Shown one piece after another: positions 126 through 12,232 of a stretch of DNA of 12,357 nt (positions are counted from its first letter, which is position 1; every line of letters starts with the position of its first letter). The notes beneath the pieces are model-generated. The model had not been told where the DNA came from and searched no databases. It worked only from the letters and a program-made list of their open reading frames with translations. Position numbers and translations under genes: made by a program. The stretch lies in the NCBI GenBank assembly GCA_040751795.1, contig JBFMHR010000009.1, positions 1 through 12,357 on the forward strand, in the 5' to 3' direction. The DNA is from Thermoplasmatota archaeon (lineage in GTDB: Archaea; Thermoplasmatota; Thermoplasmata; UBA10834).

Positions 126-139
126 TCGGTCCCCGGCAC

Positions 140-151
140 GACGACATCCTC
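140..151 (-). mobile_element. Possible IS256-family terminal repeat remnant (GAGGATGTC read leftwards)
   Basis: GACATCCTC at 143-151 is the exact reverse complement of GAGGATGTC at 12233-12241. The match extends to GAGGATGTC-GTC vs GAGGATGTCCGTC with one gap. Confidence 0.35.
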
Positions 152-178
152 TATCTGCCAGCCTGGCGGATGGGGGGC

Positions 179-742
179 TCACTCTGCCCGCCGCGCGCGC
201 TGGCCCTCCGCCCACGAGCGCCAGCCGCCGTCGGCGCTCCTGAGCACGATCTCCTCCAGCCAGCCGGCGAGCCGCGGGTCCTCCCCGCCGGTCCGGGCGA
301 CCAGTCGCGCCGCCCCCTGGATCGCCGGCAAATAGCCCGGAAACACCTCCAGCGCGGCCTCGTAGGCCTGGATCGCCTCGTCGGTCTTGCCGGCCCGCTC
401 CAGCGTGATGGCGAGGTTCAACCGGGGATCGGGGTGGCCGGGCATGAGTTTTCGCGCCCACTCGAACTCGCTCGCCGCCTCGTAGAGCTCCTCCCGGGCG
501 AGGTAGAGGACGCCGAGGTTGTTGTGGGCGGGGCCGAAGAAGAGGTCGGCGGCCAACGCTTCCCGCAGGAGAGTCTCGGCCCGTTCGGGATCCTCCTGGA
601 GGAGATCGGCCGCCTCGCGGTTCAGGGCCTGGGCGCGGACTGTATCCCGCTCCGCCTCCGGGGACGGGGAGTAGGGGCCGGCGGGAGTGCTCCGGCAGCC
701 CAGTGCCAAGGAGAAGAGGAGAAGCAGCCCCCAGCCCTTCAT
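179..742 (-). CDS. TPR-repeat lipoprotein, pilotin-like (PilF/PilW/Tgl type), 187 aa
   Basis: Signal peptide MKGWGLLLLFSLALG followed by Cys16 (lipobox). TPR helices are AHNNLGVLYL..., PRLNLAITLERAGKTDEAIQAYEAALEVFP. The start overlaps the secretin stop (ATGA, 739-742). Confidence 0.85.
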   Translation of the reverse strand: MKGWGLLLLFSLALGCRSTPAGPYSPSPEAERDTVRAQALNREAADLLQEDPERAETLLREALAADLFFGPAHNNLGVLYLAREELYEAASEFEWARKLMPGHPDPRLNLAITLERAGKTDEAIQAYEAALEVFPGYLPAIQGAARLVARTGGEDPRLAGWLEEIVLRSADGGWRSWAEGQRARRAE

Positions 743-2883
743 CGGATGACCCTCGGCTCGAGGCGCGGGCAGTCATCGGCGAGGCCCGCCGTCTGCAGGT
801 CCCGCTCGCTCATGAACCGCAGATCCTCGAAGCGGGCGTTTCTGAGCACGGAGCAGCGCAGGAAGACGAAGAAGCGGGAGCGTTCTTTCGTCTCCGACCG
901 GCTCCGGAAGAGGGCCCCGACGAGGGGAAGACTACCCAGGACCGGGACGCGGGAGGTGGCCTCGGTCTCCGCCTCGATCTCGAGCCCCCCGACGACGACG
1001 GCGTAACCGTCGGGCACCGTCGCCACGCTCTGGAGCTTGTTCTCCTGGCGGGGCGGCGGGATTCCCGGATCCGCCGAGTCCCCGACGAAGCGCGAAAGCG
1101 AGACGCTGTAGTCGATGAGGAGCCGATCGCCAGAAGTGATCTGGGGCGTGACGCGGATCTGGGTGCCGGCATCCAGCGTCCCGCCGAAGGAGGTGGTCGC
1201 GACCGTGGTGGAGGCGTTCGTGGCGAGGAAGGGGGTCTGGAGGATCGAGTCGAGGGTGGCGGTCTGGTGGTTGTTGACCAGCACCTTGGGGACGGTGAGG
1301 GTGCGGCCCTCGTTGAGGGTCTCCAGCGCCCGCAGGACACCGGCGAAGCTCCCCGGATCGAGGAGGATCCCCTCGAAGCCCGGGCCGGAGGGGGCGGGGA
1401 GCGAGCGATCCGCGGGCAAGACCTCGCCGGCGAAGAGGGTGGAGACCTGGCCCAGCACGCTGCCGATGCCTCCGCGCTTGGAGAGCGAGACGGCGAGGTC
1501 GCGGGCCTGGCTGTCGGTGAGAGTCACGACGAGCGCCTCGACCAAGACCTGGGGGTGCTCGACATCGAGCGAAGCGACGAGCCGCCCGAGCTCATCGAGG
1601 AGGCGGGGGGGGCCGATCGCCAGGATGCGGTTCGTGCCGGCGTCCTGCGCGAGGGTCACGTCGAGACCGTTGTCGTCAAGTGTCGCGACCTTCTCGCCGG
1701 TCCCGCCCTCGGGAACCGCTTCTGCCGCGCTCCCGTTCTCGGCCAGCGCCGGCAGCTCTTGGCCTCCGAGCAGGTTTTGCAGCAGGGCGAGCATCTCGTC
1801 CACGTCGCGGTTCTTGATCGCGAAGGCCCGCAGGCTGCGCCGAGAATCGGGCTCGGTCGCCTCCAGCCGCGCCATCAAGTCCTCGATCGCCGCATGTTGG
1901 CTCGGGATGGCGGAGATCACGAGCGAGCCGGTGAGCTCGTCCTCGACGAGCCGCCAGGCCCCCGCGGCCGCCTCGCGGGGCACGACCTCCTCGATCAGCC
2001 GGGCGGTCTCGGAAACCTCGAAGCGCCGCGGCACGTACTGGCGGGTCTCGACCGCTTCTTCGTGATCCAGGAGGGAGATCAGGCTTTGCCAGCGCCACAT
2101 CTCCTCCTGCGGGGCGACGATCAGAACCGTGTTGGCGTGGGGATTGGCGAGCACGCTCCCCTCCGGCGCCCCGGCCTCGCTCTTGGCCATGGCCGCGGTC
2201 ACCCGCTCCAGAAGCCCCACGAGCAGAGGAGGCGAGAGATGCTCGGGCCGGACCTCCTCCACCACGCTCGGCGAGAGGGGGGTGTCGAGCAGCGCCAAGA
2301 GCCGGACCGCCTCGGCAACCTGGGGTCTGGGGCCGGCGAGCAGCACCTGACCCGCCTCCGCGAAGACCTGCACGAGGCTGCCGCTCGTCGAGAGGATCTG
2401 CTTCAGGGGGGCCTCAACGCTGCCGCCGTCCACTGCTCCCAGGGGAGCGATGAGCTTGACGAAGCCGGCCCGGGCCGCGTCGAGTGCCCCCTCCTCGACC
2501 CGCGCGAGCTTCGCGGCGTCTTCGAGCGCCACCACCGCGATCGTCTCTTCCCCCGGGGCCTGGACGCTGGCGAGACCCTGCGCGAAGAGCAGGCGGTTCG
2601 TGAGCGCCCACAGTTCTTCATCGCTCAGGCCCGGCCCCGAGCGCAACACGATCCGTCCGCCGATCTTCTGCCGGTCGTACTCGAGGGGGATTTTCAGCGC
2701 GCCGGAGCAGAGGTCCAAGAGGCTCCCGAGATCGAGCTCGTCGGCGAAGGCATGCCAGCGGGGCGAGTCTTCCGGGGCGGGGGGCGAGCGCGATTCCGCG
2801 GTCTCCTCGGGCAAGGGCCGGCGCTGGGCGGCCAGGGGCGCGGCGAGGAGGACGAGGGCCAGGAATGCTCCCGGACTTGGCAC
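739..2883 (-). CDS. gspD: Outer-membrane secretin, type II secretion GspD-like (~714 aa)
   Basis: Secretin motifs include PQVLVEALVV, LTVPKVLVNNHQTATL, AGTQIRVTPQI, VPDGYAVVVGGL, VPVLGSLPLVGALFRS. Repeated Secretin_N units end in ...LLALLD/...LISLLD/...LMARLE/...LVASLD. The likely start is GTG at 2883, giving signal peptide (M)PSPGAFLALVLLAAPLAAQ. The upstream 270 codons of the called 984-aa ORF are low-complexity and overlap another gene. Confidence 0.9.
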   Translation of the reverse strand: MPSPGAFLALVLLAAPLAAQRRPLPEETAESRSPPAPEDSPRWHAFADELDLGSLLDLCSGALKIPLEYDRQKIGGRIVLRSGPGLSDEELWALTNRLLFAQGLASVQAPGEETIAVVALEDAAKLARVEEGALDAARAGFVKLIAPLGAVDGGSVEAPLKQILSTSGSLVQVFAEAGQVLLAGPRPQVAEAVRLLALLDTPLSPSVVEEVRPEHLSPPLLVGLLERVTAAMAKSEAGAPEGSVLANPHANTVLIVAPQEEMWRWQSLISLLDHEEAVETRQYVPRRFEVSETARLIEEVVPREAAAGAWRLVEDELTGSLVISAIPSQHAAIEDLMARLEATEPDSRRSLRAFAIKNRDVDEMLALLQNLLGGQELPALAENGSAAEAVPEGGTGEKVATLDDNGLDVTLAQDAGTNRILAIGPPRLLDELGRLVASLDVEHPQVLVEALVVTLTDSQARDLAVSLSKRGGIGSVLGQVSTLFAGEVLPADRSLPAPSGPGFEGILLDPGSFAGVLRALETLNEGRTLTVPKVLVNNHQTATLDSILQTPFLATNASTTVATTSFGGTLDAGTQIRVTPQITSGDRLLIDYSVSLSRFVGDSADPGIPPPRQENKLQSVATVPDGYAVVVGGLEIEAETEATSRVPVLGSLPLVGALFRSRSETKERSRFFVFLRCSVLRNARFEDLRFMSERDLQTAGLADDCPRLEPRVIR

Positions 2884-3160
2884 CGAGGACCGATTCCGGG
2901 ACGCCGTTGCCGAATTCGGGACTATCCCCCTCGAAGGGAAGGGGAGGCTGCGGTAGGTTCTGCTGGCGACGAGAGGTCCACCCCCTGCCAGAGAGTGGGC
3001 AGGGGGGCAGCCAGAGCTGGCTGCCCCGCCAAGCAACAGCGGGTCTGATTGCAGCCCGTTCGAGCGGTTCACACACCGGCGGGGCAGCCGCCTTCTTATG
3101 GTGTCCTCCCCTTGCGGGGGGCGCGCGCGGGCAAGCATGGCTGGCCCACGGCGGTTCGGA
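2884..3160 (-). other. Highly structured 277-bp intergenic spacer upstream of the secretin gene
   Basis: Perfect stems occur at 2981-2989/2998-3006 (9 bp), 3004-3013/3018-3027 (10 bp) and 3019-3030/3078-3089 (12 bp). A CCCC-GCAA-GGGG hairpin lies on the minus strand at 3108-3119. Confidence 0.55.
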
Positions 3161-3916
3161 TCAGTCGGAGACGGCCGCGTTCCAGGCCGTCTGGACGGTG
3201 GCGAGATAGGTATCGACGTTGCCCTTGGCGGTCGCGATGTCGGCATCGCCGTCCACGCTCGCGAGGTAGTCCTGGACCGCGACGGGGAAGTCTTCGTCGT
3301 ACTGCTCGTGGATGCGACGGGTGGCGAGGGCGTCGGAGAGCTCGACCCAGCCCTCTTGGGTGCGGTCCTCGACGAGGTAGTGGACGGCGAGCCCCCAGAC
3401 GCGGTTGGCGCGGATGCGGCGCAGGATCGCGACCTGGTCGGTAGTAACGGTCGCGAGGCCGGCCTCGAAGTAGCGGTCGAGGAGGCCGTCCCGCGTGGCG
3501 GCCTGGGCGTCGGCGGCGAGCTTCGCCGCCTGGCAGCTCGCGAGCTCTTCGGGGCTCGCCTGGCCGCCGCGGACCTTGCGCACGAGCTGCGAGTAGGAGA
3601 AGTAGTCCTCCTCGTAGGCGGCGTCGGCCGCGGCGAGGGCGGTGGAGGCCTCGCTGATCTCCGATTCGACGGCGGCGACGAGGTCCTGGACATCCTGGGC
3701 GCCGATCACGCCAGAAGCGGCGAGGGCCGGGGCGTCGAGGCGCGCGCGCATGAGGACGTTGCCGAGGGGGGTGTTGGCCGGCGGGGGCGGCGGATCGGGC
3801 GCGGAGGGCGGAGAATCCACCGAATCGAGGGCCAGCGCGAGCCCCAGGACTCCCAGGGGAAGGAGGATGAGGAGGAGCCCCACGATCGAGGCTCCACGGC
3901 GAGGTGACGATTGCAT
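3161..3916 (-). CDS. Exported/membrane-anchored alpha-helical hypothetical protein (251 aa)
   Basis: GGAGG lies 6 nt upstream of ATG 3916. The N-terminus is MQSSPRRG-ASIVGLLLILLPLGVLGLALAL, followed by a Pro-rich linker and an Ala-rich acidic helical body. Third codon positions are strongly G/C. Confidence 0.8.
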   Translation of the reverse strand: MQSSPRRGASIVGLLLILLPLGVLGLALALDSVDSPPSAPDPPPPPANTPLGNVLMRARLDAPALAASGVIGAQDVQDLVAAVESEISEASTALAAADAAYEEDYFSYSQLVRKVRGGQASPEELASCQAAKLAADAQAATRDGLLDRYFEAGLATVTTDQVAILRRIRANRVWGLAVHYLVEDRTQEGWVELSDALATRRIHEQYDEDFPVAVQDYLASVDGDADIATAKGNVDTYLATVQTAWNAAVSD

Positions 3917-4074
3917 GGCAAGCCTCCAGAGGCCAAGAGCGGCCGGAGTTGAGGAAGAACGGGTGCGCGGCACGCGCCGAGCGGTTCACCGTCCAACCTA
4001 GCCGAGGATCCGAAAAAGGGAACAGGAAAAACACCTCGCACCCCTTCCCCTTCCCGGCGATGGGACGGAGACGT

Positions 4075-4109
4075 TGTAAAACTGGTCGTTCCGGGTTTCT
4101 GTGTAAAAC
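4075..4109. promoter_or_regulatory. Direct repeat TGTAAAAC x2, candidate regulator binding site
   Basis: Exact 8-mers at 4075-4082 and 4102-4109 in an AT-richer patch of the divergent intergenic region. Confidence 0.35.
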
Positions 4110-4379
4110 CCATCGAGATTCCCATCTCCCGGACGGACGAGATCGGTCCTGTTGCGAAAGCGAACATCGTCCCCCGATCGACTCCCTCAGCCTCATGGGC
4201 CACACCGTCCGACGGAGTCGCGCGCGGACCGATCGACGCATGCGAAAGGTTCGATGCGATCCGGGGCGGCCTGGGGTCTGGATCGGCGCGGGAGCCGCGA
4301 TGCAACGGCGGGAAAGCACGCAAGTCGTTGCGGGCGGAGCACTTCGCGCGCGCCGCGCGACTTCCGAGGAGAAAGTGGG

Positions 4380-4408
4380 TTGACGCGCGCGGCGGGCGCG
4401 CCTAGCAT
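4380..4408 (+). promoter_or_regulatory. Sigma70-like promoter for the rhs gene
   Basis: TTGACG (4380-4385), a 17-bp spacer and TAGCAT (4403-4408), about 150 bp upstream of the rhs start, in otherwise very GC-rich sequence. Confidence 0.6.
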
Positions 4409-4555
4409 GCCGGTGTGTGACCCGCTCTCTGTCCTTGCGCTCGCTCGCCCGCGTCCCGGCGTGTTGAGCTCTCGGCCTCCCGCGTAGCGGATCGGCCCGG
4501 CCCGCGCCCGGAGCGCGAGCGGCGGGCGTCCGACGCTCGTCGCAAGGTGATCTCC

Positions 4556-6352
4556 ATGCAATCTCGCTCCGCTCTCCGGACGTGGTCTCTTCTCGCTTTC
4601 GTCGCCCTGCTTGCCGCCGCGAGCTCCGCCTTCCTCCTTCCTTGGCGAGGCGCGGTCGCGACGACGACGCCGATCCTCGAGTTCTACGCCCCCTCGATCA
4701 CGACCTACCTGCCCTCGGGCGCGACGGCCGGCCAGGACGTGCGGCCGCTCGCTGAGCAGCGAGCGGTCAACCTCGACGGATCCCTGCGCGCCGCCCCCTC
4801 GGAGCTCATGGCGATCGCCGGCAATCCCTTCGAGAGCGCCTGGGGGGTCGGGCCGAAGGCGGGCGTGCGCCTCGAGACGGGCACCCATGCCCTCCAGGAG
4901 GTGGACATCGCGCTGCCGGCCGAAGGCTTCCCGTGGGTGATCGGGCGGACGTTCAACGCCCACCAGAAGGACTCGGGGGGATCCCACCGCGACAGCGACG
5001 GTTTTCAGGGCCACAACTGGTTCCAGAGCTCGCAGATGGAGATCCAGCTCTTCGAGGACGCCCAAGACAACGACGACGACGTCCTCTACCTCGTTTTTGG
5101 GGCCGAGCGTTACATCGAGTTCGACCGGGTGGACAAGGACCCCGACAGCGACACGTTTAAGGCCACGAACGGCGCAGCGGGCGTGGTGCTCTTCGAGGCG
5201 GGGGCCTCGGGCGAGCCGGACACCTACACGCTGATCGACCAGCACTCGAACGAGATCGTCTTCTTCGGCTTCGACGGGGATGCGGACCCGGCCGCCGGCC
5301 AGATCTGGAAGATCACCGACCCGGACGGGAACTGCGCGTACGTCGGCAACAGCAGCACGGGGAGCACCGCGATCTCCAGCGGCTACAACGCCTCCGGCTA
5401 CATCACGACCGCCTACGATCCCTCCGGGAGGCGCTTCTCCTACACCTACACGACGCTTGACAGCGTGGACCGGCTGACCCAGGTGAAGGCGGAGGTGAAC
5501 GACGGGGGCTGGGTCGAGGTCGCTCGCGTGGACTACGAGTACTACACGAGCGAGGACCACGGAGACGCGGGCGACCTGAAGCTCGTCGAGATCACGACGC
5601 CCCTCTCCGACTCGGGAGTGAGTGTTTCCCGCAAGAAGTACTACCGCTACTGGGAGGGGAGTTTTGACAGCTCGACGAACCCCGGCCACGTCCACGCGAT
5701 CAAGTACGTCGTCGGCTTCGAGGGGACGAGAAACCAGGACTGGGAGGACCAGAGCTTCGACGAGGACTTCCTCTCCTTGAGCGACGCGAACCTGGAACCC
5801 TACGCGGCGGCCTACTTCGAGTACGACTCGAGCCACCGGATCGACAAGTGCTGGGCGAACGGCGAGTGCGGGTGCGGGGGCGGGTGCGACGGGACGCACG
5901 AGTTCGAGTACGAGTCGAACGGCAGCTTCTCGGACACCACCGGTTCCTACGACACGGCCTGGAAGACGCGGACCATCATCAAGCGCCCGGACCTGACCTA
6001 CGAGACCTGGTACTTCGACGAGGCGGTGCAGGCGCTGCACCAGGTGATCACCGACGCCGACCCCGACAACACGAACCCTGCTCCCGCGACCTGGGCGACC
6101 AAGATCGTGCGGGACTCGAACGGCTGGGTCACGAGCATCCACTCGCCGGCGAACGTGACCGACTACACCCATTCGTCGGCCTCGTTTACCACCAGCACGA
6201 CCGCGGGCCTTGTGACCCACGTCGGCCGCGTGGACGCGAACGAGCTCAAGGGCTTCGTGGATGAGGAGAAGTGGTCGGCGGGAACATCGGGGACCGCCTA
6301 CTACGATACGGAGTGGGCCTGGACGAAGGCGGAGCTTGCCTCCTGGGGGGGG
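4556..6352 (+). CDS. rhs: Rhs/YD-repeat protein, N-terminal part (signal peptide + DUF6531-like domain + YD repeats), interrupted by a frameshift
   Basis: AAGGTGA SD-like site precedes ATG 4556. Signal peptide is MQSRSALRTWSLLAFVALLAAASSA. GVRLETGTHALQEVDIALPAEGFPWVIGRTFN is DUF6531-like. YD units include AYDPSGRRFSYTY. D/T/Y-rich coding quality stops at the G8 tract, after which this frame becomes Arg-rich nonsense until the stop at 6859. Confidence 0.85.
6345..6352 (+). repeat. G8 homopolymer at the rhs frameshift
   Basis: TCCT-GGGGGGGG-CACG. Removing one G gives ...ELASWGGTSLDEDIGRPF... and fuses both ORFs into one 2101-aa protein (4556-10862). Confidence 0.85.
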
Positions 6353-9300
6353 CACGAGCCTGGACGAGGACATCGGCCGGCCGTTCCTGGACAAGCGCTA
6401 CGACTACCACGCCGTCTCGACCAGCACCGCCGATCGGATCGAGACCGACTACACGACGAACGTCACCTCGGGGACGCTGGCCATCAGCGACACGAACCTC
6501 GCCTACGTCGAGCCCACGTCCGCCGGCGGGGGCGGCTACACCGATCTCGACGAGACCCTCTACTACGACGACGACGGGGTCCAGTCCTGGACGAAGCACA
6601 AGGACGCGACGATCAGCTACCGCGGCTACACGGACGGGCGGATGACCACGTCCATCGAGGACGTGGACACCGCGCAGACCTCGAACGAGCCGCAGGGGCT
6701 GTCGAGCAGCGGCACGGAGATCCACCGGACCACGACCTACGCCTACGACAAGCAGGGCCGGCTCACGACCACGACCTTCGCGGACGGGCAGGTCACGAAG
6801 TCCTACTACACGAAGCTCGCCGATGGGCGGCTCGTGACCCTCGGCTACCAGGATTTTGAGACCTCGCCCTCGACCAAGTACTACGGGCCGGTCTCCTACT
6901 CCGTCACGAACCACGCCGGCAAGGTCGAGTTCGAGGGGCGGGTCGCGTTGACGAACAACGAGTCCACCACCACGCTGGCGAACCACGTGGACGAGGCGGA
7001 GAGCGATCCGCTCTTGGCGATGGACCTCGGGACGGTCTGCCGGATGACGACCCACGTCTACGACGACACCGGGACGAGGCTCCAAGAGTCTCGCCTCTAC
7101 TTTGACATCCCCGCGTCCGGTGCGGGGAGTGACGGGACCAATTACGACCCGACCAAGTTTGGGTATGACGACATGGGGCGGCGGTGGCGGACGAAGGAGG
7201 CGTCCGGCACTATCCACCGCACGGTCCACGACGATCTTGGTCGGGTCGCGTCCCGCTGGATAGGCACGAACGACTCTTCCTTCTCCGGCGGCGAGACTTC
7301 GGGCACCGACGACATGGTGAAGACGGAAGAGCTCGTCTACGACGCGGGAGCGGATGGGGGGAACTCCTACCTCACGAAGCGCACGCTCTACGTCCAGGGG
7401 GACGCGACTGGCAAGCGCGAGACCTCCTACACGAACGACGTGCGGGGAAGGGCGCTGGTCGAGGACCGGCCTACCGCGCCCCATACCTTCCACAAGTACG
7501 ACAACCGCGGCCGAAGACTCGGGACCGGACTCTTCAGCTCGACCGCGAACATCGTGGCCGGGACGGACGACCCCACGACCGAGACGAGCAACCGCCTGGC
7601 GCTCTCCGAGTGGGCGTTCAACGACCTCGGGCAGCTCTACGCCACGAAGCAGAACAAGATCGACGATGCCGACGGATCGGATGACGACGAGATCACGACC
7701 GAGTACGGCTACGACGAGATGGGCCGGCGGATCTACGTGCAGGGGGGCGAGTACGCCAAGACCTTCTATGACCGGCTGGGGCGGGAGACGCACCACCTGG
7801 TTCTGGCCGACGAGAACGACACGACGTACGGGGATCGGACCCAAAGCACCTCGTCGGGGGACACGATCCTGGAGGAGCACCAGACCGTCTTTGATTCCGA
7901 CAACGACGACATCCTGATGCGCGTCGGGATCATGCGCTTCCCGAGCTCGCTCATGAACACGAAGCTCGACAGCGAGGCCGACGGAGATCGGCTTCTCGTC
8001 ACCGATGCGAACATCACGGGGCGGGTCCAGATCTCGGCCTACTGGTACGACGAGCTCGGGCGGGAGACCGACCGGATCGCGTACGGGACCTACGGCGAGA
8101 GCGATTTCGATCGGGACGGGCTCTCGGTGCCCTCGCGCTCGGACACGGAGCTCGTGACGAGCACGGACTACGGCGACGACGGGGAGGTGCTGGACATCAC
8201 CGATCCCCGGGCCTTCGTGATGCACTTCGACTACGACGACGCCGGAAGGCAGACGAAGGTCCGCCGCCACTACGACGCGAACGTGAACGGCGGCAACCCG
8301 AGCGGCACGGATGACAACCAGACCGTCGTCTACGAGTACACCGACGGCCTGCGCACCAAGATCAAGGTGGACATGCCGGCGGGGACCGACGACCAAGAAA
8401 CGATCTACACCTACGGGGTCACCAAGGGGACCTCGGCGGGGGACTCGAAGATCGGCAACAAGAACCTCCTCTGGAAGGTCCAGTACCCGGACTCCTCCGG
8501 GGGCACGGATGTGGTGAGCTACGCCTACAACGCCCAGCAGGAGAGGATCTACGAGAAGGACCAAGAGGGGAACGTCATCGAGAACGACTTCGATGACTCG
8601 GGACGGCAGACCCACCGCCGGATCACGACGCTCGATGCCGACTTCGACGGGGACGTGCGGCGGATCACGACCGCCTACGACAACCTGGGGCGCCGCAGCA
8701 CGATCACCCAGTACGACAACGCCACCGTCGGCAGCGGGACGGTGGTGGACGAGGTGAAGTTCACCTACGACGACTGGGGAAACGTGGACAAGTACGAGCA
8801 GGACCACGACAGCACGGTCGGGGGTGGCGGGTCTCTTGCCTACTACGAGGTGAGCTACAGCTACGAGAAGGACCTCGACGGCCGGCCGGCGGTTCGCAAG
8901 ACCGGGGTCACGCTGCCCAGCGGCAACGTGATCACCTACGGCTACGGATCCGCCGGGTCACAGCACGACGACGCCGACCTCGTCCTCACCGTGAAGGACG
9001 ACACGGTGACGCTGGCGACCTACACCTATCTCGGCTCCGCGATGGTGGTGCGGACCACCTACAACGAGCCGGGGATCTTCTCCACCCTCTACACCTCCGG
9101 CTACGGCACCTACGGGAACCTCGACCGCTTCAACCGGGTGACGACCTCGAGCTGGACGAGCGACCTCGCCACCGACCGCGACTTCTACGACGTGGACATG
9201 TCTTACGACCGAAACGGCAACGTCACGCTCGTGAACGACAACACCCATGCCGGCAAGGATGTGTCCTACACGATGGACGACCTCGATCGCCTCGCTCGGG

Positions 9301-10862
9301 CCCAGCAGGGCACGTGGGGCGGGTCGTCGATCAGCTCGGAAAAGCGGGACGAGGAGTGGACGCTCGACCACACCGGGAACTGGGACTTCTATCGGCTCGA
9401 CTTCAACGACGACGGCGACGGGCTCGACACGAACGAGCTCGAGGACGACCGCACCCACAACAAGGTGAACGAACTGTTGGGGCGGGACACCGACGACAAC
9501 GGGACGGACAACTACACCCTCGTCTACGACGCCGATGGCAACCTGACCGACGACGACGAGACCTACAAGTACACCTACGACCCCTTCGGGCGGCTCTGCC
9601 TGATCCAGAACCAGTCGAGCGCCACCGTCGCGGACATGGAGTACAACGGCCTGGGGCACCTGAAGAGCATCCACGCCGATACCGACGACGACGGGGACGT
9701 GGACGCTTCCGACAAGTGGTTCCACGCGGCCTACGACGAGGCCTGGCGGATGGTCGCCTACTACCGGGAGGCTGACGACGATCCCAAGGAGGAGTTCGTG
9801 CCGGCCCAGGCGGGCGTTGACGGGGAGGGGGGAAGCTCCTACATTAACGGCGTGGTCTGCCGCAACAAGGATGCCAACACAGCCTGGACGGATGCGTCCG
9901 ACGGGGTGCTCGAAGAGCGGCTCTTCTACTGCCAGAACTGGCGGGGGGACGTGGTGGCGCTCGTCCACAAGAACCGGCTGCAGGTCGAGTCGGTCCGCTA
10001 CTCCCCCTACGGGGAGCCCTTCGGGCTGCCCGAGCCGGATGCCGACTCCGACGGGGACCGGGACGCGGCGGACGGGACGCAGATCAGCGCGTGGATCAAC
10101 CAGAGCGCCTACGACGTGCGGGGGGACGTGGACCTCGACGGGGACGTGGACTCGACCGACCTCGACTGGGGGACGACGTACGGGGCGGCGACGCTGGGAT
10201 GGGGGGAGCTGAGTTGGAGAGCGAATAGGATGGGGTTTGCTGGATCCGAGAAGCTAGCGAACGCCCCCCGCCTATATTCGGCCCGCAATCGTGCGTACAA
10301 CTGGAACGCTGGAAGATGGTCGAGCCGAGACCCATTGCCGTATATAGACGGACCTTCCTTGTATGCCTTCGCAAGTGAGAATCCGGCTATTCATGTTGAT
10401 CCTTCAGGGCTCCTCGGCTGTGCAATGCCGGGAGGTGGTAATCCTGGCTTTCCAGACCTGTTCAGCTATGGATGTTTCTGCGGCAACAAGGCCGGTCCGC
10501 CTCCGGTAGGCGAACAGGCGCCTGCAGGCTGGGATTGCGACAAAGTCCCCGGTATGGATGCTTTGGATCAGTGCTGCTGCAAGCACGATCAAGCCAACCC
10601 TATGGGCCAGTCCTGGTGGCAAACCGTCAAGAACTGGTTTACGAGCGCGTGCGATCTCGCAGATTGCGCCCTTGAGAGTGTGAGCTCGGAAAGCGTAGAC
10701 CTTGGGGCTGCCGCATGTGTGTTCTACTTTGCGTGTCAAACTTGCCCCAAGCCCAAATGCTGGGGTCTCGCAAACGCGGCACTAGGGGCCTGCGCCGCGT
10801 GGCTAGCTGCCGGGACGCCAAAGCCGTGCGTGCCGTACTGGTTGATCCCGCTGGTCTGGTAG
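6351..10862 (+). CDS. rhs: Rhs protein, C-terminal part: YD-repeat shell, Rhs core and toxin tip
   Basis: Many YD repeats (YAYDKQGRL, FGYDDMGRR, YGYDEMGRR, YTYDPFGRL). The core reads RYSPYGEP...RAYNWNAGRWSSRDP...LYAFASENPAIHVDPSGL (PxxxxDPxGL, ending at 10412). Confidence 0.92.
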   Translation, partial: GTSLDEDIGRPFLDKRYDYHAVSTSTADRIETDYTTNVTSGTLAISDTNLAYVEPTSAGGGGYTDLDETLYYDDDGVQSWTKHKDATISYRGYTDGRMTTSIEDVDTAQTSNEPQGLSSSGTEIHRTTTYAYDKQGRLTTTTFADGQVTKSYYTKLADGRLVTLGYQDFETSPSTKYYGPVSYSVTNHAGKVEFEGRVALTNNESTTTLANHVDEAESDPLLAMDLGTVCRMTTHVYDDTGTRLQESRLYFDIPASGAGSDGTNYDPTKFGYDDMGRRWRTKEASGTIHRTVHDDLGRVASRWIGTNDSSFSGGETSGTDDMVKTEELVYDAGADGGNSYLTKRTLYVQGDATGKRETSYTNDVRGRALVEDRPTAPHTFHKYDNRGRRLGTGLFSSTANIVAGTDDPTTETSNRLALSEWAFNDLGQLYATKQNKIDDADGSDDDEITTEYGYDEMGRRIYVQGGEYAKTFYDRLGRETHHLVLADENDTTYGDRTQSTSSGDTILEEHQTVFDSDNDDILMRVGIMRFPSSLMNTKLDSEADGDRLLVTDANITGRVQISAYWYDELGRETDRIAYGTYGESDFDRDGLSVPSRSDTELVTSTDYGDDGEVLDITDPRAFVMHFDYDDAGRQTKVRRHYDANVNGGNPSGTDDNQTVVYEYTDGLRTKIKVDMPAGTDDQETIYTYGVTKGTSAGDSKIGNKNLLWKVQYPDSSGGTDVVSYAYNAQQERIYEKDQEGNVIENDFDDSGRQTHRRITTLDADFDGDVRRITTAYDNLGRRSTITQYDNATVGSGTVVDEVKFTYDDWGNVDKYEQDHDSTVGGGGSLAYYEVSYSYEKDLDGRPAVRKTGVTLPSGNVITYGYGSAGSQHDDADLVLTVKDDTVTLATYTYLGSAMVVRTTYNEPGIFSTLYTSGYGTYGNLDRFNRVTTSSWTSDLATDRDFYDVDMSYDRNGNVTLVNDNTHAGKDVSYTMDDLDRLARAQQGTWGGSSISSEKRDEEWTLDHTGNWDFYRLDFNDDGDGLDTNELEDDRTHNKVNELLGRDTDDNGTDNYTLVYDADGNLTDDDETYKYTYDPFGRLCLIQNQSSATVADMEYNGLGHLKSIHADTDDDGDVDASDKWFHAAYDEAWRMVAYYREADDDPKEEFVPAQAGVDGEGGSSYINGVVCRNKDANTAWTDASDGVLEERLFYCQNWRGDVVALVHKNRLQVESVRYSPYGEPFGLPEPDADSDGDRDAADGTQISAWINQSAYDVRGDVDLDGDVDSTDLDWGTTYGAATLGWGELSWRANRMGFAGSEKLANAPRLYSARNRAYNWNAGRWSSRDPLPYIDGPSLYAFASENPAIHVDPSGLLGCAMPGGGNPGFPDLFSYGCFCGNKAGPPPVGEQAPAGWDCDKVPGMDALDQCCCKHDQANPMGQSWWQTVKNWFTSACDLADCALESVSSESVDLGAAACVFYFACQTCPKPKCWGLANAALGACAAWLAAGTPKPCVPYWLIPLVW
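10038..10160 (+). other. Dockerin/EF-hand-like duplicated Ca-binding insert in the Rhs core
   Basis: DADSDGDRDAAD...GDVDLDGDVDSTD are two DxDxDG loops about 29 aa apart, inserted between YSPYGEP and MGFAG. Confidence 0.65.
10413..10862 (+). other. C-terminal toxin domain: secretory phospholipase A2-like (149 aa, 15 Cys)
   Basis: YGCFCG (10467-10484) matches the sPLA2 Ca-loop YGCxCG. DALDQCCCKHD (ending 10589) matches the active-site helix DxxDxCCxxHD. A later ACDLADC is a candidate second catalytic Asp helix. Confidence 0.8.
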
Positions 10863-11149
10863 TGGAGAAGACCATGGCACACGAGGTCCCAGCCCGGCAG
10901 TGGGGTATTGTGGTGGACCACCGAAGGGGCACGTGGGGCTGGGAGCAGTACCGTGGTAATCAGGGATGACGATCATGGGCTACTGGGTTGTTGATGCCGG
11001 TGACGCTCTCTGGGGCGGTGCGCGATTGTTTGGACACGTGCTTGGGCCCGACCGCGCCGCATCACGTCCGAGGCCGGTTCCCCCGACCGCCCCCGACAAC
11101 TCACCCTTGCGTCCAAGAAACCCGGTTCGCTACAGATGGGGGACGAAGC

Positions 11150-12217
11150 GTGGAACTCGCAGATGACCCGAGAAACGGCCGAGAGTGCGCGCGGGCAGTC
11201 ACAGGCAGCATCAGCCGAATCCTCGTTGGAGCCCTGCTAGTCGCGAGCGCGTTCGGCGTGGCCCTTATGGTGGGCGGTCCCCTTGCCTGCTTCTTTCTTA
11301 CACAGGGTGAGCCTCTGCCGACCATGGATGGTCCAGAGGACGAGGACCTGCGGTCGGAGGTGAGGTGCACCCTGGTGATCGCACAATCCCACACGTATGC
11401 CGAGGGATTGATACTCCTGAGACTGCCGGAGGGGGAAAGTACCCACGTTGAGCTGGAGGACCCCTCCATCAGCCATAGCGCAATCGCGTGTGACGGCTCG
11501 GTGGCCTACCTCACGAGACGGTCGGAGAGCCTGCTCCTGCGAGTCAAGGATGTGGAGAGTGGAAGAGAGCAGACGGTGCTGCAGCGATCAGGGGACTTCA
11601 TCGATGGATCGAGCGTCTCTCTGTCCCCGGACGGAAGGTACCTCACACTGCTCACCAGCGAGGACCGGGGGGGATTCAAGAGAACCCCAGGGCAATTGGA
11701 ACTAGTAGATCGGAGGGGAACAACCATGAGGATAATAAACGACTGCCAGATAGGAAGGGAAGTCCATTGGCTGGCGGATAGCGTTCACTATGTTTTCGAT
11801 AGTAAGGATGGAGTGCACATCGGAAGCATGAACAAAGCTGAGGATGTGCATATTCCAGGGGCCGTCGAGGCGATTACCGGGGAGTCTTCCACGCTCGTCC
11901 TCGTAATTGGCCGCGACCCGATCTATGCTATCGATCGGAACGGGCGGTATCGGTTGTACGACGTAGTGAAAGAACGCTACGTTGATGACATCGTACTACC
12001 GGGGGATCTTTTCGGCCCTATCGGTTTTACGGACACGGGGCTTGTGCTATACGAAGCCTTGCCGACCACAGGCACCGAGCAGAAACTGCTTGGGTGGGGC
12101 CTGACATATCCGAGTGCACAATGGACCATCAAGGTGTGCGATCCTGGATCCGGTCGTTTTGCGACCGTTGTGCCGCACTATGGATACGGAAGGATCGCGT
12201 TCGGGTCGTCCATCTGA
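11150..12217 (+). CDS. Membrane-anchored TolB-like beta-propeller protein, candidate immunity protein (~355 aa; start uncertain)
   Basis: A hydrophobic segment ILVGALLVASAFGVALMVGGPLACFFL is followed by blade-like repeats (IACDGSVAYL, LSPDGRYLTL, WLADSVHYVF, FTDTGLVLY). It lies downstream of the Rhs tip and shares its lower-GC codon style. GTG 11150 is preferred over TTG 10988 because it puts the TM segment near the N-terminus and has GGGGGA upstream. Confidence 0.7.
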   Translation: MELADDPRNGRECARAVTGSISRILVGALLVASAFGVALMVGGPLACFFLTQGEPLPTMDGPEDEDLRSEVRCTLVIAQSHTYAEGLILLRLPEGESTHVELEDPSISHSAIACDGSVAYLTRRSESLLLRVKDVESGREQTVLQRSGDFIDGSSVSLSPDGRYLTLLTSEDRGGFKRTPGQLELVDRRGTTMRIINDCQIGREVHWLADSVHYVFDSKDGVHIGSMNKAEDVHIPGAVEAITGESSTLVLVIGRDPIYAIDRNGRYRLYDVVKERYVDDIVLPGDLFGPIGFTDTGLVLYEALPTTGTEQKLLGWGLTYPSAQWTIKVCDPGSGRFATVVPHYGYGRIAFGSSI

Positions 12218-12232
12218 CACGATGATTTCTGC

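Follow-up and report, generated by a model that had tools for sequence, protein, structure and literature searches.

An Rhs toxin gene with a Sec signal, its helical partner and a type II-like secretin on a contig binned with a Thermoplasmatota archaeon

The window analyzed here, 12,357 nt long, is the whole of the 12.4-kb contig JBFMHR010000009.1 (C53 hereafter), one of 53 contigs in a 2.05-Mb assembly (GCA_040751795.1) classified as a Thermoplasmatota archaeon. It holds a gene for a large Rhs-type toxin with a Sec signal and, divergent from it, an arm of three genes coding for a helical protein (HEL hereafter), a GspD-type secretin and a tetratricopeptide repeat (TPR) lipoprotein. This layout had been described, with gene borders about where we place them, in an initial annotation made from the sequence, which read the locus as an export module for the Rhs toxin. 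Homology bears the layout out and, as was also stated there, no ATPase, inner-membrane platform or prepilin peptidase is seen in the window. The high guanine-cytosine (GC) content of ~66% gives rise to many long spurious open reading frames (ORFs), and the frames kept are those with family or homologue support. The features are the following.

179-742, minus strand: TPR lipoprotein of 187 aa at the end of the arm, matched by Pfam TPR_2 and TPR_1
739-2883, minus strand: GspD-type secretin (714 aa; GTG start before the Sec signal, no lipobox), matched by Pfam
2884-3160: spacer between HEL and the secretin gene, 277 nt
3161-3916, minus strand: HEL (251 aa), recognized by its homologues
3974-4546: divergent intergenic region, 573 nt
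4547-10862, plus strand: Rhs, ~2,100 aa in two frames, by homology and NCBIfam
4547-6352, plus strand: Rhs 5' part in frame 2, with Sec signal, family-specific N-terminus, DUF6531-like shell start and first YD repeats
6345-10412, plus strand: Rhs 3' part in frame 0, with YD shell, acidic DxDxDG-type repeats and Rhs-associated core with its DPSGL end
10413-10862, plus strand: Rhs C-terminal toxin domain, 149 aa
10988-12217, plus strand: candidate immunity gene, ~320-409 aa depending on the start chosen, by position

Relatives of HEL in species-representative genomes were found at five loci, all of them in three Planctomycetota metagenome-assembled genomes (MAGs). HEL relatives were aligned (A1, followed by the 17-row A2), and the search covered 401 genomes of this phylum. 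Eleven genomes matched HEL at E <=1e-3, nine of them at E <=1.7e-11. Loci (numbered with L, their genomes with G) were mapped by tblastn with the window proteins, using flanks of up to 10 kb per side. An Rhs gene of the same family adjoins HEL in all 15 loci with a usable Rhs-side flank (the window itself, L009, L010, L011, L044-L050 and L052-L055), within ~1.5 kb and in at least ten genomes. The N-terminal 600 residues of these Rhs proteins are 41-57% identical to those of the window. Both genes are divergent in 14 loci and lie on the same strand in L046. Left out of this count were L008, L012-L015 and L051, which have too little flank, and L056, which has a distant HEL-like gene. The pairing was also seen from the other side: in five genomes, every one of the nine copies of the family-specific Rhs N-terminus (alignment A3) lies within ~1.5 kb of HEL. 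The same genomes contain ten HEL matches, the tenth being a fragment of 110 residues that lies 1 kb from the end of its contig. A secretin gene adjoins HEL in 16 of 19 assessable loci, in at least nine genomes, the exceptions being L044 and L045 (both G374) and L053 (G232). The strictly paired unit consists of Rhs and HEL; the secretin often joins them as a third member. That the arrangement of the module was found again in at least ten other genomes is far beyond chance. A conserved linkage between secretin and Rhs was the preset test of the initial annotation's idea, which survives it: the arrangement recurs across Planctomycetota and the linked secretins are a separate clade, as detailed below. 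Its choice of the secretin as the partner of Rhs needs a correction: the invariant partner is HEL, and three loci do without the secretin.

The host genomes contain 7-12 Secretin matches each. The window protein is matched by the Pfam families Secretin (99.6 bits, E 1.9e-28) and Secretin_N (78.5 bits, E 4.4e-22). Its best NCBIfam model is GspD (TIGR02517; 195.1 bits, below the cut-off of 351.35), ahead of PilQ and SctC. A structural model of residues 1-330, made from an 11-row alignment (pLDDT 81.7), matches PulD (6hcg_A, E 3.9e-12, 285 columns) as well as the N0-N2 structures of XcpQ and of GspD from enterotoxigenic Escherichia coli. Judged by this model, the window protein is built like the secretin of a type II secretion system (T2SS), with a predicted GspD-like N0-N3 fold. 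Over the last 314 residues, the linked secretins are 50-65% identical to that of the window, and other paralogues 21-31%. A maximum-likelihood tree (23 rows) has a branch, supported at 100/99, that sets the 12 linked-type rows apart. Of these, L027 (identical to L008), L024 (context unchecked) and L059 (without HEL) are grouped by similarity, so that context alone does not define the group. The neighbors of the linked clade are the generic T2SS secretins of the same genomes (94/92). The phylogeny proposed in the initial annotation thus supports it, placing the linked secretins in a clade of their own that is sister to the generic T2SS secretin. No HEL-like gene was found upstream of the generic D-E-F-G clusters.

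The arm occurs in a long and a short form. In three genomes, at L052 (G232, a 3.6-Mb single contig), L054 and L055 (G198, two near-identical copies) and L046 (G335), its order is HEL-D-E-F-G-H-I-K-L-M-TPR lipoprotein. The long form is identified by matches to T2SSE (1.8e-109), T2SSF (3e-46) and T2SSG (2e-15), by two or three N_methyl pseudopilins, and by a K-like gene, a weak GspL_C match and an M-sized gene. Its ATPase has GspE as best NCBIfam match (478.5 bits, cut-off 630). This is the classical gsp order, with HEL in the place of gspC. In the short form the lipoprotein gene directly follows the secretin gene, as seen at six loci (the window, L008, L010, L015, L047 and L049). GspE, GspF and GspG are missing from the window; C53 ends 178 nt beyond the TPR gene and the absence of further genes there is therefore uninformative. 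The genes that flank L010 are unrelated: beyond one end come a polyketide synthase and a CarboxypepD_reg protein, beyond the other a MacB-type ABC exporter in convergent orientation. Inside the linked clade the two forms are mixed in a way that the tree does not resolve, and no order of events is drawn from it. A further arrangement is found at L053 (G232), where only Rhs, HEL and a TPR-like lipoprotein are present; the same genome has full systems at L052 and L059. The initial annotation regarded the secretin as a stand-alone dedicated exporter, and this part of it has to be given up, as related arms carry GspE, F and G, minor pseudopilins and K/L/M-like genes. The arm of the window is rather the reduced form of a T2SS branch. 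The missing parts had been suggested to be borrowed in trans, lost or unnecessary; borrowing in trans is the best of the three and is backed by the comparison of L053 with L052 and L059.

A third T2SS of the same clade lies in G232 (L059/L061, contig C1, ~1,207,000-1,227,000). It has the order D-E-F-G-H-I-K-L-M-TPR lipoprotein without HEL and is 45-81% identical to the Rhs-linked system. Its neighbors, in tail-to-tail orientation, are a different giant Rhs-type gene (>2,400 aa) and an orphan fragment of an Rhs C-terminus. At L010 (G041), the exporter at 13393-17800 is made up of an ABC ATPase and two permeases of the FtsX/MacB_PCD kind. It is oriented convergently to the gene for the TPR lipoprotein, and the ORF that follows was read by eye as an HlyD-like adaptor. 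This exporter was not seen at the other loci examined and is probably unrelated.

HEL belongs to no Pfam or NCBIfam family, and its start could be 3973, 3916 or a GTG that lies 11 codons further inside. A search of 5.8e9 protein clusters gave ten matches, including the window's own, and a metagenome scan with the HEL alignment returned three short contigs only. The protein begins with a hydrophobic helix, continues with a linker rich in proline (PPPPANT) and ends in an all-alpha domain. Its structural model (pLDDT 88.9, pTM 0.78) has a low-confidence helix at residues 19-32 and a compact all-alpha domain at 45-250. Foldseek revealed no convincing fold in the PDB for this model (best E 0.26). 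VIA-align matched generic helical hairpins at Z <=9.0 over 51-128 residues, which is below the meaningful level for helical bundles, and ESM Atlas contributed only helical-hairpin look-alikes with TM <0.4. HEL takes the gspC position of the arm; no GspC-like match was obtained by Pfam, NCBIfam, Foldseek or VIA-align, and the long-form loci contain no alternative candidate. A prediction of the complex between HEL residues 45-251 and the N-terminal 192 residues of Rhs, made from alignments, scored 0.00 and says nothing either way. Its position, membrane tether and 1:1 pairing with Rhs suggest that HEL acts as a cargo-specific coupler. It could also be soluble or co-secreted through a cleaved signal.

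The TPR lipoprotein gene is always the last of the arm. In the window its product is matched by Pfam TPR_2 (6e-11) and TPR_1 (1e-10), both above the cut-offs, and a LALGC lipobox is read from the sequence. Orthologues that are 53-62% identical end the arm in L008, L010, L015, L047 and L049 (short form) and in L054/L055 and L059 (long form). NCBIfam gives PilW (33.4 bits, cut-off 154) and Tgl (30.6 bits, cut-off 225), both far below. The lipoprotein is thus found in the pilotin position and resembles pilotins of the PilW/PilF/Tgl type, with a putative role in secretin binding. As judged by eye from the ORF ends, the linked secretins (window ~739-830; L010, L046, L049 and L052) share a similar C-terminal tail, ending in GLADDCPRLEPRVIR in the window, and the generic T2SS secretins of the same genomes are without it. 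This tail may be a docking site for the TPR lipoprotein.

Compared with the arm, the Rhs gene of the window is less straightforward. Rhs homology runs in frame 2 to ~6340 and then in frame 0 from a run of eight G (6345-6352), a shift of one base. All five full-length relatives aligned, with the two window pieces joined by X, are continuous across this position. The intact Rhs toxin gene of the initial annotation is therefore not what the assembly contains, its frame being broken at the G run, and the window copy may be inactive, phase-variable or mis-assembled. One could go further and regard the short form in the window as a decaying remnant, namely a T2SS operon minus E to M beside an Rhs pseudogene, with no present function. 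Other traits of the locus fit such a decay. Degenerate TPR 3' ends with in-frame stops are present on two small contigs of the assembly, C52 and C6, beside a shared repeated element, and we take an ORF on C6 to be transposase-like. The gap of 277 nt between HEL and the secretin gene is unusually long (3-12 nt at L010 and L049), and a GspE of the module type was not found in the short-form genomes. We nevertheless consider this explanation quite unlikely. The HEL, secretin and TPR genes of the window are intact, and a single homopolymer shift is also the commonest assembly error. Importantly, the short form is intact at L008, L010, L015, L047 and L049, in at least four other genomes whose HEL proteins are no more than 33-45% identical, a sign of long-term selection.

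Apart from the frame, the Rhs protein has the parts of a secreted polymorphic toxin. A Sec-type signal is read from the sequence at the N-terminus in the window and is present in five of five full-length relatives aligned. Ahead of the DUF6531-like shell start, the family has a conserved segment of ~70 residues. Between residues 39 and 230 of the N-terminal part, identity to 12 relatives is 44-53% (alignment A3), and the window protein is 39-54% identical to relatives over ~1,360 residues. DUF6531 scores 23.0 bits (Pfam cut-off 24.1). RHS_repeat reaches 20.8 and 21.4 bits on the window pieces, just under the cut-off of 22, and 30.1 bits on the L010 orthologue (2,112 aa). Rhs_assc_core (TIGR03696) is found at 46.1 bits (cut-off 32.5), with the DPSGL motif located before the toxin, where autoproteolysis would be expected. 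Together, these matches argue for the YD-repeat shell of Rhs polymorphic toxins. Pfam detects no PAAR, prePAAR, VgrG, SpvB or TcA-type domain in the window Rhs, the L010 orthologue is without SpvB and TcA-type domains too, and no TcA-sized gene lies near Rhs in the window or at the L010 locus. The initial annotation was hence right in describing a Sec-signal Rhs without a PAAR/VgrG part, as the signal is present and no Pfam domain linked to a type VI secretion system (T6SS) is. VipB, a T6SS sheath gene, was found in two of five host genomes; G198, whose 3.3-Mb single contig carries two modules, is not among them. The Rhs protein is thus unlikely to be T6SS cargo, and the domains predicted at its N-terminus are neither those of T6SS effectors nor those of TcB/TcC.

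The Rhs C-termini after DPxGL differ in all six proteins aligned, which fits the expectation for polymorphic toxins. The toxin domain of the window, 149 aa long and cysteine-rich, has YGCFCG and CCxxHD motifs, which we take to be reminiscent of the consensus of secreted phospholipase A2 (PLA2). It matches no Pfam family, and no true homologue was found among 1.84e9 representatives. Three of its four PDB matches at E<10 are PLA2, at E values of 3.6-8.6. The C-terminus of the L055 Rhs, which is different from that of the window, contains CCEAHDNCY; it matches PF06951 below the cut-off (E 0.0011), and all 14 of its PDB matches at E<1 are PLA2. As a weak lead, the toxin domain of the window may be PLA2-like. 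One protein, P0011 (E 3.2e-12), was rejected as a homologue of the domain; it is a cysteine-containing tandem-repeat protein with eight matched stretches, and the similarity was judged compositional. The ORF downstream (10988-12217) codes for a membrane-anchored protein in the low-GC tail of the contig (GC 0.55-0.61). It has no Pfam or NCBIfam family, and tblastn gave no homologue of it adjoining any related Rhs. By its position only, it is likely the immunity gene.

Of the non-coding parts, the divergent intergenic region contains a promoter-like site on the plus strand facing Rhs (4380-4408), a consensus match only, found once against a mean of 0.1 in shuffled sequence. An Rfam scan of the window, including the spacer between HEL and the secretin gene (2884-3160), gave no match, and a repeat scan revealed YD-repeat periodicity and chance pairs only.

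The reading we favor, to which we give a probability of about 0.6, is that the toxin is exported by Sec and then leaves the cell via a dedicated T2SS branch, with HEL as an Rhs-specific accessory. In this route, the Rhs precursor of ~2,100 aa would cross the inner membrane by Sec, as indicated by the signal peptide in the window and in the five full-length relatives, and would fold into its shell in the periplasm. HEL, as a membrane-tethered all-alpha protein in the GspC position, would recognize Rhs, a role suggested by the strict 1:1 gene pairing. Rhs would then leave through the clade-specific GspD secretin, the assembly of which might be helped by the PilW/Tgl-like TPR lipoprotein; both assignments follow from position and family. 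The pseudopilus motor is encoded in the same arm in long-form relatives, and the short form would have to rely on one from a different T2SS locus in the same cell. The toxin at the C-terminus appears to be exchangeable, and the next gene likely codes for the immunity protein.

It is conceivable that the linkage is real and that the T2SS branch does not export Rhs at all. HEL might then be a periplasmic chaperone, an anchor or a co-secreted helper, for example a TcA-like membrane-inserting translocator, while the T2SS genes secrete something else or share regulation or a mobile island with Rhs. In support of this explanation, HEL and not the secretin is invariant, since Rhs and HEL occur without a secretin at L044, L045 and L053, and G374 is without the secretin clade. 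Several HEL members have Ala-x-Ala-like motifs after the N-terminal helix, possibly marking a cleaved signal. Weak Foldseek rows to the alpha-pore-forming proteins AhlB and SmhB hint in the same direction, at noise level (E 0.57-0.8, probability <=0.28). On balance we regard a branch that does not export Rhs as unlikely. The secretin is adjacent in 16 of 19 loci and at least nine genomes and belongs to a clade distinct from the other paralogues; the third same-clade T2SS in G232, although without HEL, also abuts a different Rhs-type giant protein; and in Xanthomonas the activity of an RHS bacteriocin is abolished by loss of the T2SS.

Export of Rhs through the T2SS branch has to be weighed against a number of difficulties. 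This copy may be decaying, given the frameshift in the window's Rhs gene and the truncated TPR remnants on other contigs. G374 has two Rhs-HEL pairs and no secretin of the clade (best identity 26%), unless this MAG is incomplete. The motor for the short form is assumed and was not found: a close orthologue of the long-form GspE was not detected in three short-form genomes, where the best matches are 42-45% identical in generic D-E-F-G clusters of G283 and G047, which have their own secretin and no HEL-like gene, and 37-57% identical over parts in G041. The fold of HEL is without any match, a GspC-like homology region (HR) domain included, and its label as an adaptor is a guess. Finally, the size of the cargo is borderline. 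The core of a T6SS Rhs protein is described as ~100 x 60 A (10.1101/2024.02.26.582050), and the window-type Rhs is ~600 aa longer than such cores. For the T2SS, an endopilus at least 60 A wide and the passage of a known effector of 55 A are described (PMC10550240). Size is thus a real difficulty for export through the secretin and does not exclude it.

Taking the dedicated T2SS branch one step further, we tentatively propose that planctomycetes possess a branch specialized for a Sec-exported Rhs shell of ~230 kDa, in which HEL replaces GspC as the coupler. HEL, secretin and TPR pilotin would form a portable cassette that docks on any T2SS motor of the cell or, as a bolder version, works without a dedicated ATPase. 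We consider this extended model possible, at somewhat short of even odds. If true, Sec-signal Rhs toxins of diderms would for the first time have a defined route across the outer membrane, and the cargo would be the largest folded T2SS substrate known.

A secretin on a contig of an archaeal assembly raises the question of its source. The main contigs are archaeal, as they carry aCPSF1 (971.5 bits, cut-off 580.2) and proteasome beta (255.7 bits, cut-off 224) by NCBIfam, and a replication factor C (RFC) large subunit and a FlaI-like ATPase are also found on large contigs. The window's secretin is the only Secretin match of the whole assembly. The idea that it is the organism's only, housekeeping secretin was dropped because the rest of the assembly is archaeal. 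C53 is almost certainly a fragment of a Planctomycetota genome that was co-binned with the Thermoplasmatota archaeon, as its homologues indicate. Alternatively, C53 could be truly archaeal and stem from a recent transfer from a planctomycete, resulting in an archaeon with a secretin and an Rhs toxin. The low estimated contamination of the bin (1.15%) speaks for such a transfer. Composition is compatible with it as well: the GC content of 0.663 is within the range of the bin, and the tetranucleotide distance of C53 (0.0197) lies in the upper tail and not outside (bin median 0.0088, 95th percentile 0.0216, 80 chunks). By itself this distance is no proof of foreign origin, a point that weighs against our assignment. 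A single-membrane archaeon, however, has no place for a T2SS, for a lipoprotein with a lipobox or for a secretin of the outer membrane. Of 40 relatives of the bin, none has a match to the window's secretin: 11 share the bin's genus, a further 13 its family, three its order and 13 its class, and several consist of one contig, among them single-contig genomes of the family. Furthermore, no archaeal gene is found on C53, and several small contigs of the bin have repeats of C53, which hints toward a small set of foreign contigs that was co-binned. We therefore regard a transfer into the archaeon as very improbable.

Three small contigs of the bin repeat the 3' end of the TPR gene with ~50 nt beyond it (window 126-331), sharing 100-150 nt of it with 79-86% of the nucleotides identical (C52:14190-14346, C6:3518-3676 and C24:1554-1655). 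The copies on C52 and C6 are remnants with in-frame stops, joined to a sequence common to both contigs. C52, C6 and C24 probably come from the same planctomycete and are misbinned too, and they may mark further, broken copies of the module. C52 (17.7 kb) has a tetranucleotide distance from the bin mean of 0.0248, above the 95th percentile of 12-kb chunks. On this contig, ORF translations at ~1100-13440 show what we take, from Cas3-like and Cas4-like motifs, to be a CRISPR-Cas-like locus, with a repeat-array-like stretch at ~1180-2770. As a practical outcome, several contigs of the archaeal bin are flagged as bacterial contamination.

A distant variant was observed at L056 (G179, contig C3, 166500-186400), at 9480-19899 of the locus. 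There, a HEL-like protein of 271 aa (E 1.7e-11 to the HEL profile), a 671-aa protein without known family and a protein of >2,500 aa with PA14 and RHS repeats are encoded in this order on the same strand. No secretin is found within 20 kb.

How Rhs toxins with a signal peptide leave diderm cells is poorly understood, the well-studied routes being T6SS, Tc complexes and lysis-type release. The module offers a concrete export route for Sec-signal Rhs proteins and a candidate specificity factor for the choice of cargo by the T2SS, a long-standing question. With a width of ~60 A and ~230 kDa, its cargo would test the size limit of the secretin channel.

Among known systems, the canonical T2SS (Gsp/Pul/Xcp/Eps) is the closest in build. 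Both share a GspD-type secretin, GspE, F, G, pseudopilins and K/L/M in classical order in the relatives, and a lipoprotein for the secretin. A second T2SS dedicated to a substrate is also known, such as Hxc of Pseudomonas. The module differs in that it has no HR-domain GspC and an unrelated all-alpha protein in its place, and in that its pilotin is not PulS/AspS but belongs with the TPR lipoproteins of type IV pili. Moreover, its GspD and GspE stay below the NCBIfam equivalog cut-offs, the short form is without the inner-membrane part, and the apparent substrate is an Rhs shell of ~230 kDa.

With T6SS Rhs effectors and TcB/TcC, the module shares an Rhs shell that ends in a core with DPxGL and encapsulates a variable toxin. 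In contrast to these, it has a Sec signal and no PAAR, VgrG, prePAAR, SpvB or TcA-type Pfam domain. WapA of Bacillus subtilis and other Sec-exported Rhs proteins of monoderms resemble it in their Sec signal, YD shell, polymorphic toxin and downstream immunity gene, as far as they are described in passages of two papers (PMC7259588, PMC12704120). Monoderms have no outer-membrane step, whereas in the module a secretin or T2SS is genetically attached.

The nearest functional precedent is Bcn-A of Xanthomonas perforans. According to the passages on this protein, it is an RHS-family bacteriocin of 1,398 aa that is active in the supernatant, and its activity is lost in a mutant of xpsD, which encodes the T2SS secretin (PMC7259588). 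Like the module, Bcn-A combines a large YD-repeat toxin of a diderm with an immunity gene. It differs, in the same description, by relying on the general Xps system and on the small accessory ORFs 2-4 (PMC7259588). The likeness is drawn from this description, and the passages concerned mention no dedicated secretin, HEL-like protein or T2SS paralogue beside the gene (PMC7259588). The initial annotation named T6SS cargo and TcC subunits as the forms in which Gram-negative Rhs toxins are mostly known; T2SS-dependent activity of an RHS toxin in a diderm already has this experimental precedent (PMC7259588).

Loci of a comparable plan are described, in the portions of the preprint that concern them, for Omnitrophota, where conserved T2SS-like loci containing gspD/E/F precede giant genes (10.1101/2023.11.21.568195). 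These are bacteria related to the PVC (Planctomycetes, Verrucomicrobia, Chlamydiae) group, and their secretion locus stands beside very large extracellular proteins, some with Rhs-like beta-helical parts. They differ from the module in phylum and in a giant multi-domain cargo, and the same portions mention neither a HEL-like protein nor a secretin-only short form (10.1101/2023.11.21.568195). In the open full-text literature, with subscription journals outside this scope, no account was found of an Rhs gene coupled to a secretin or T2SS of its own. The principle is thus not new, while novelty appears to lie in the dedicated secretin clade, in HEL as partner, in a TPR protein as pilotin and in the portable short form.

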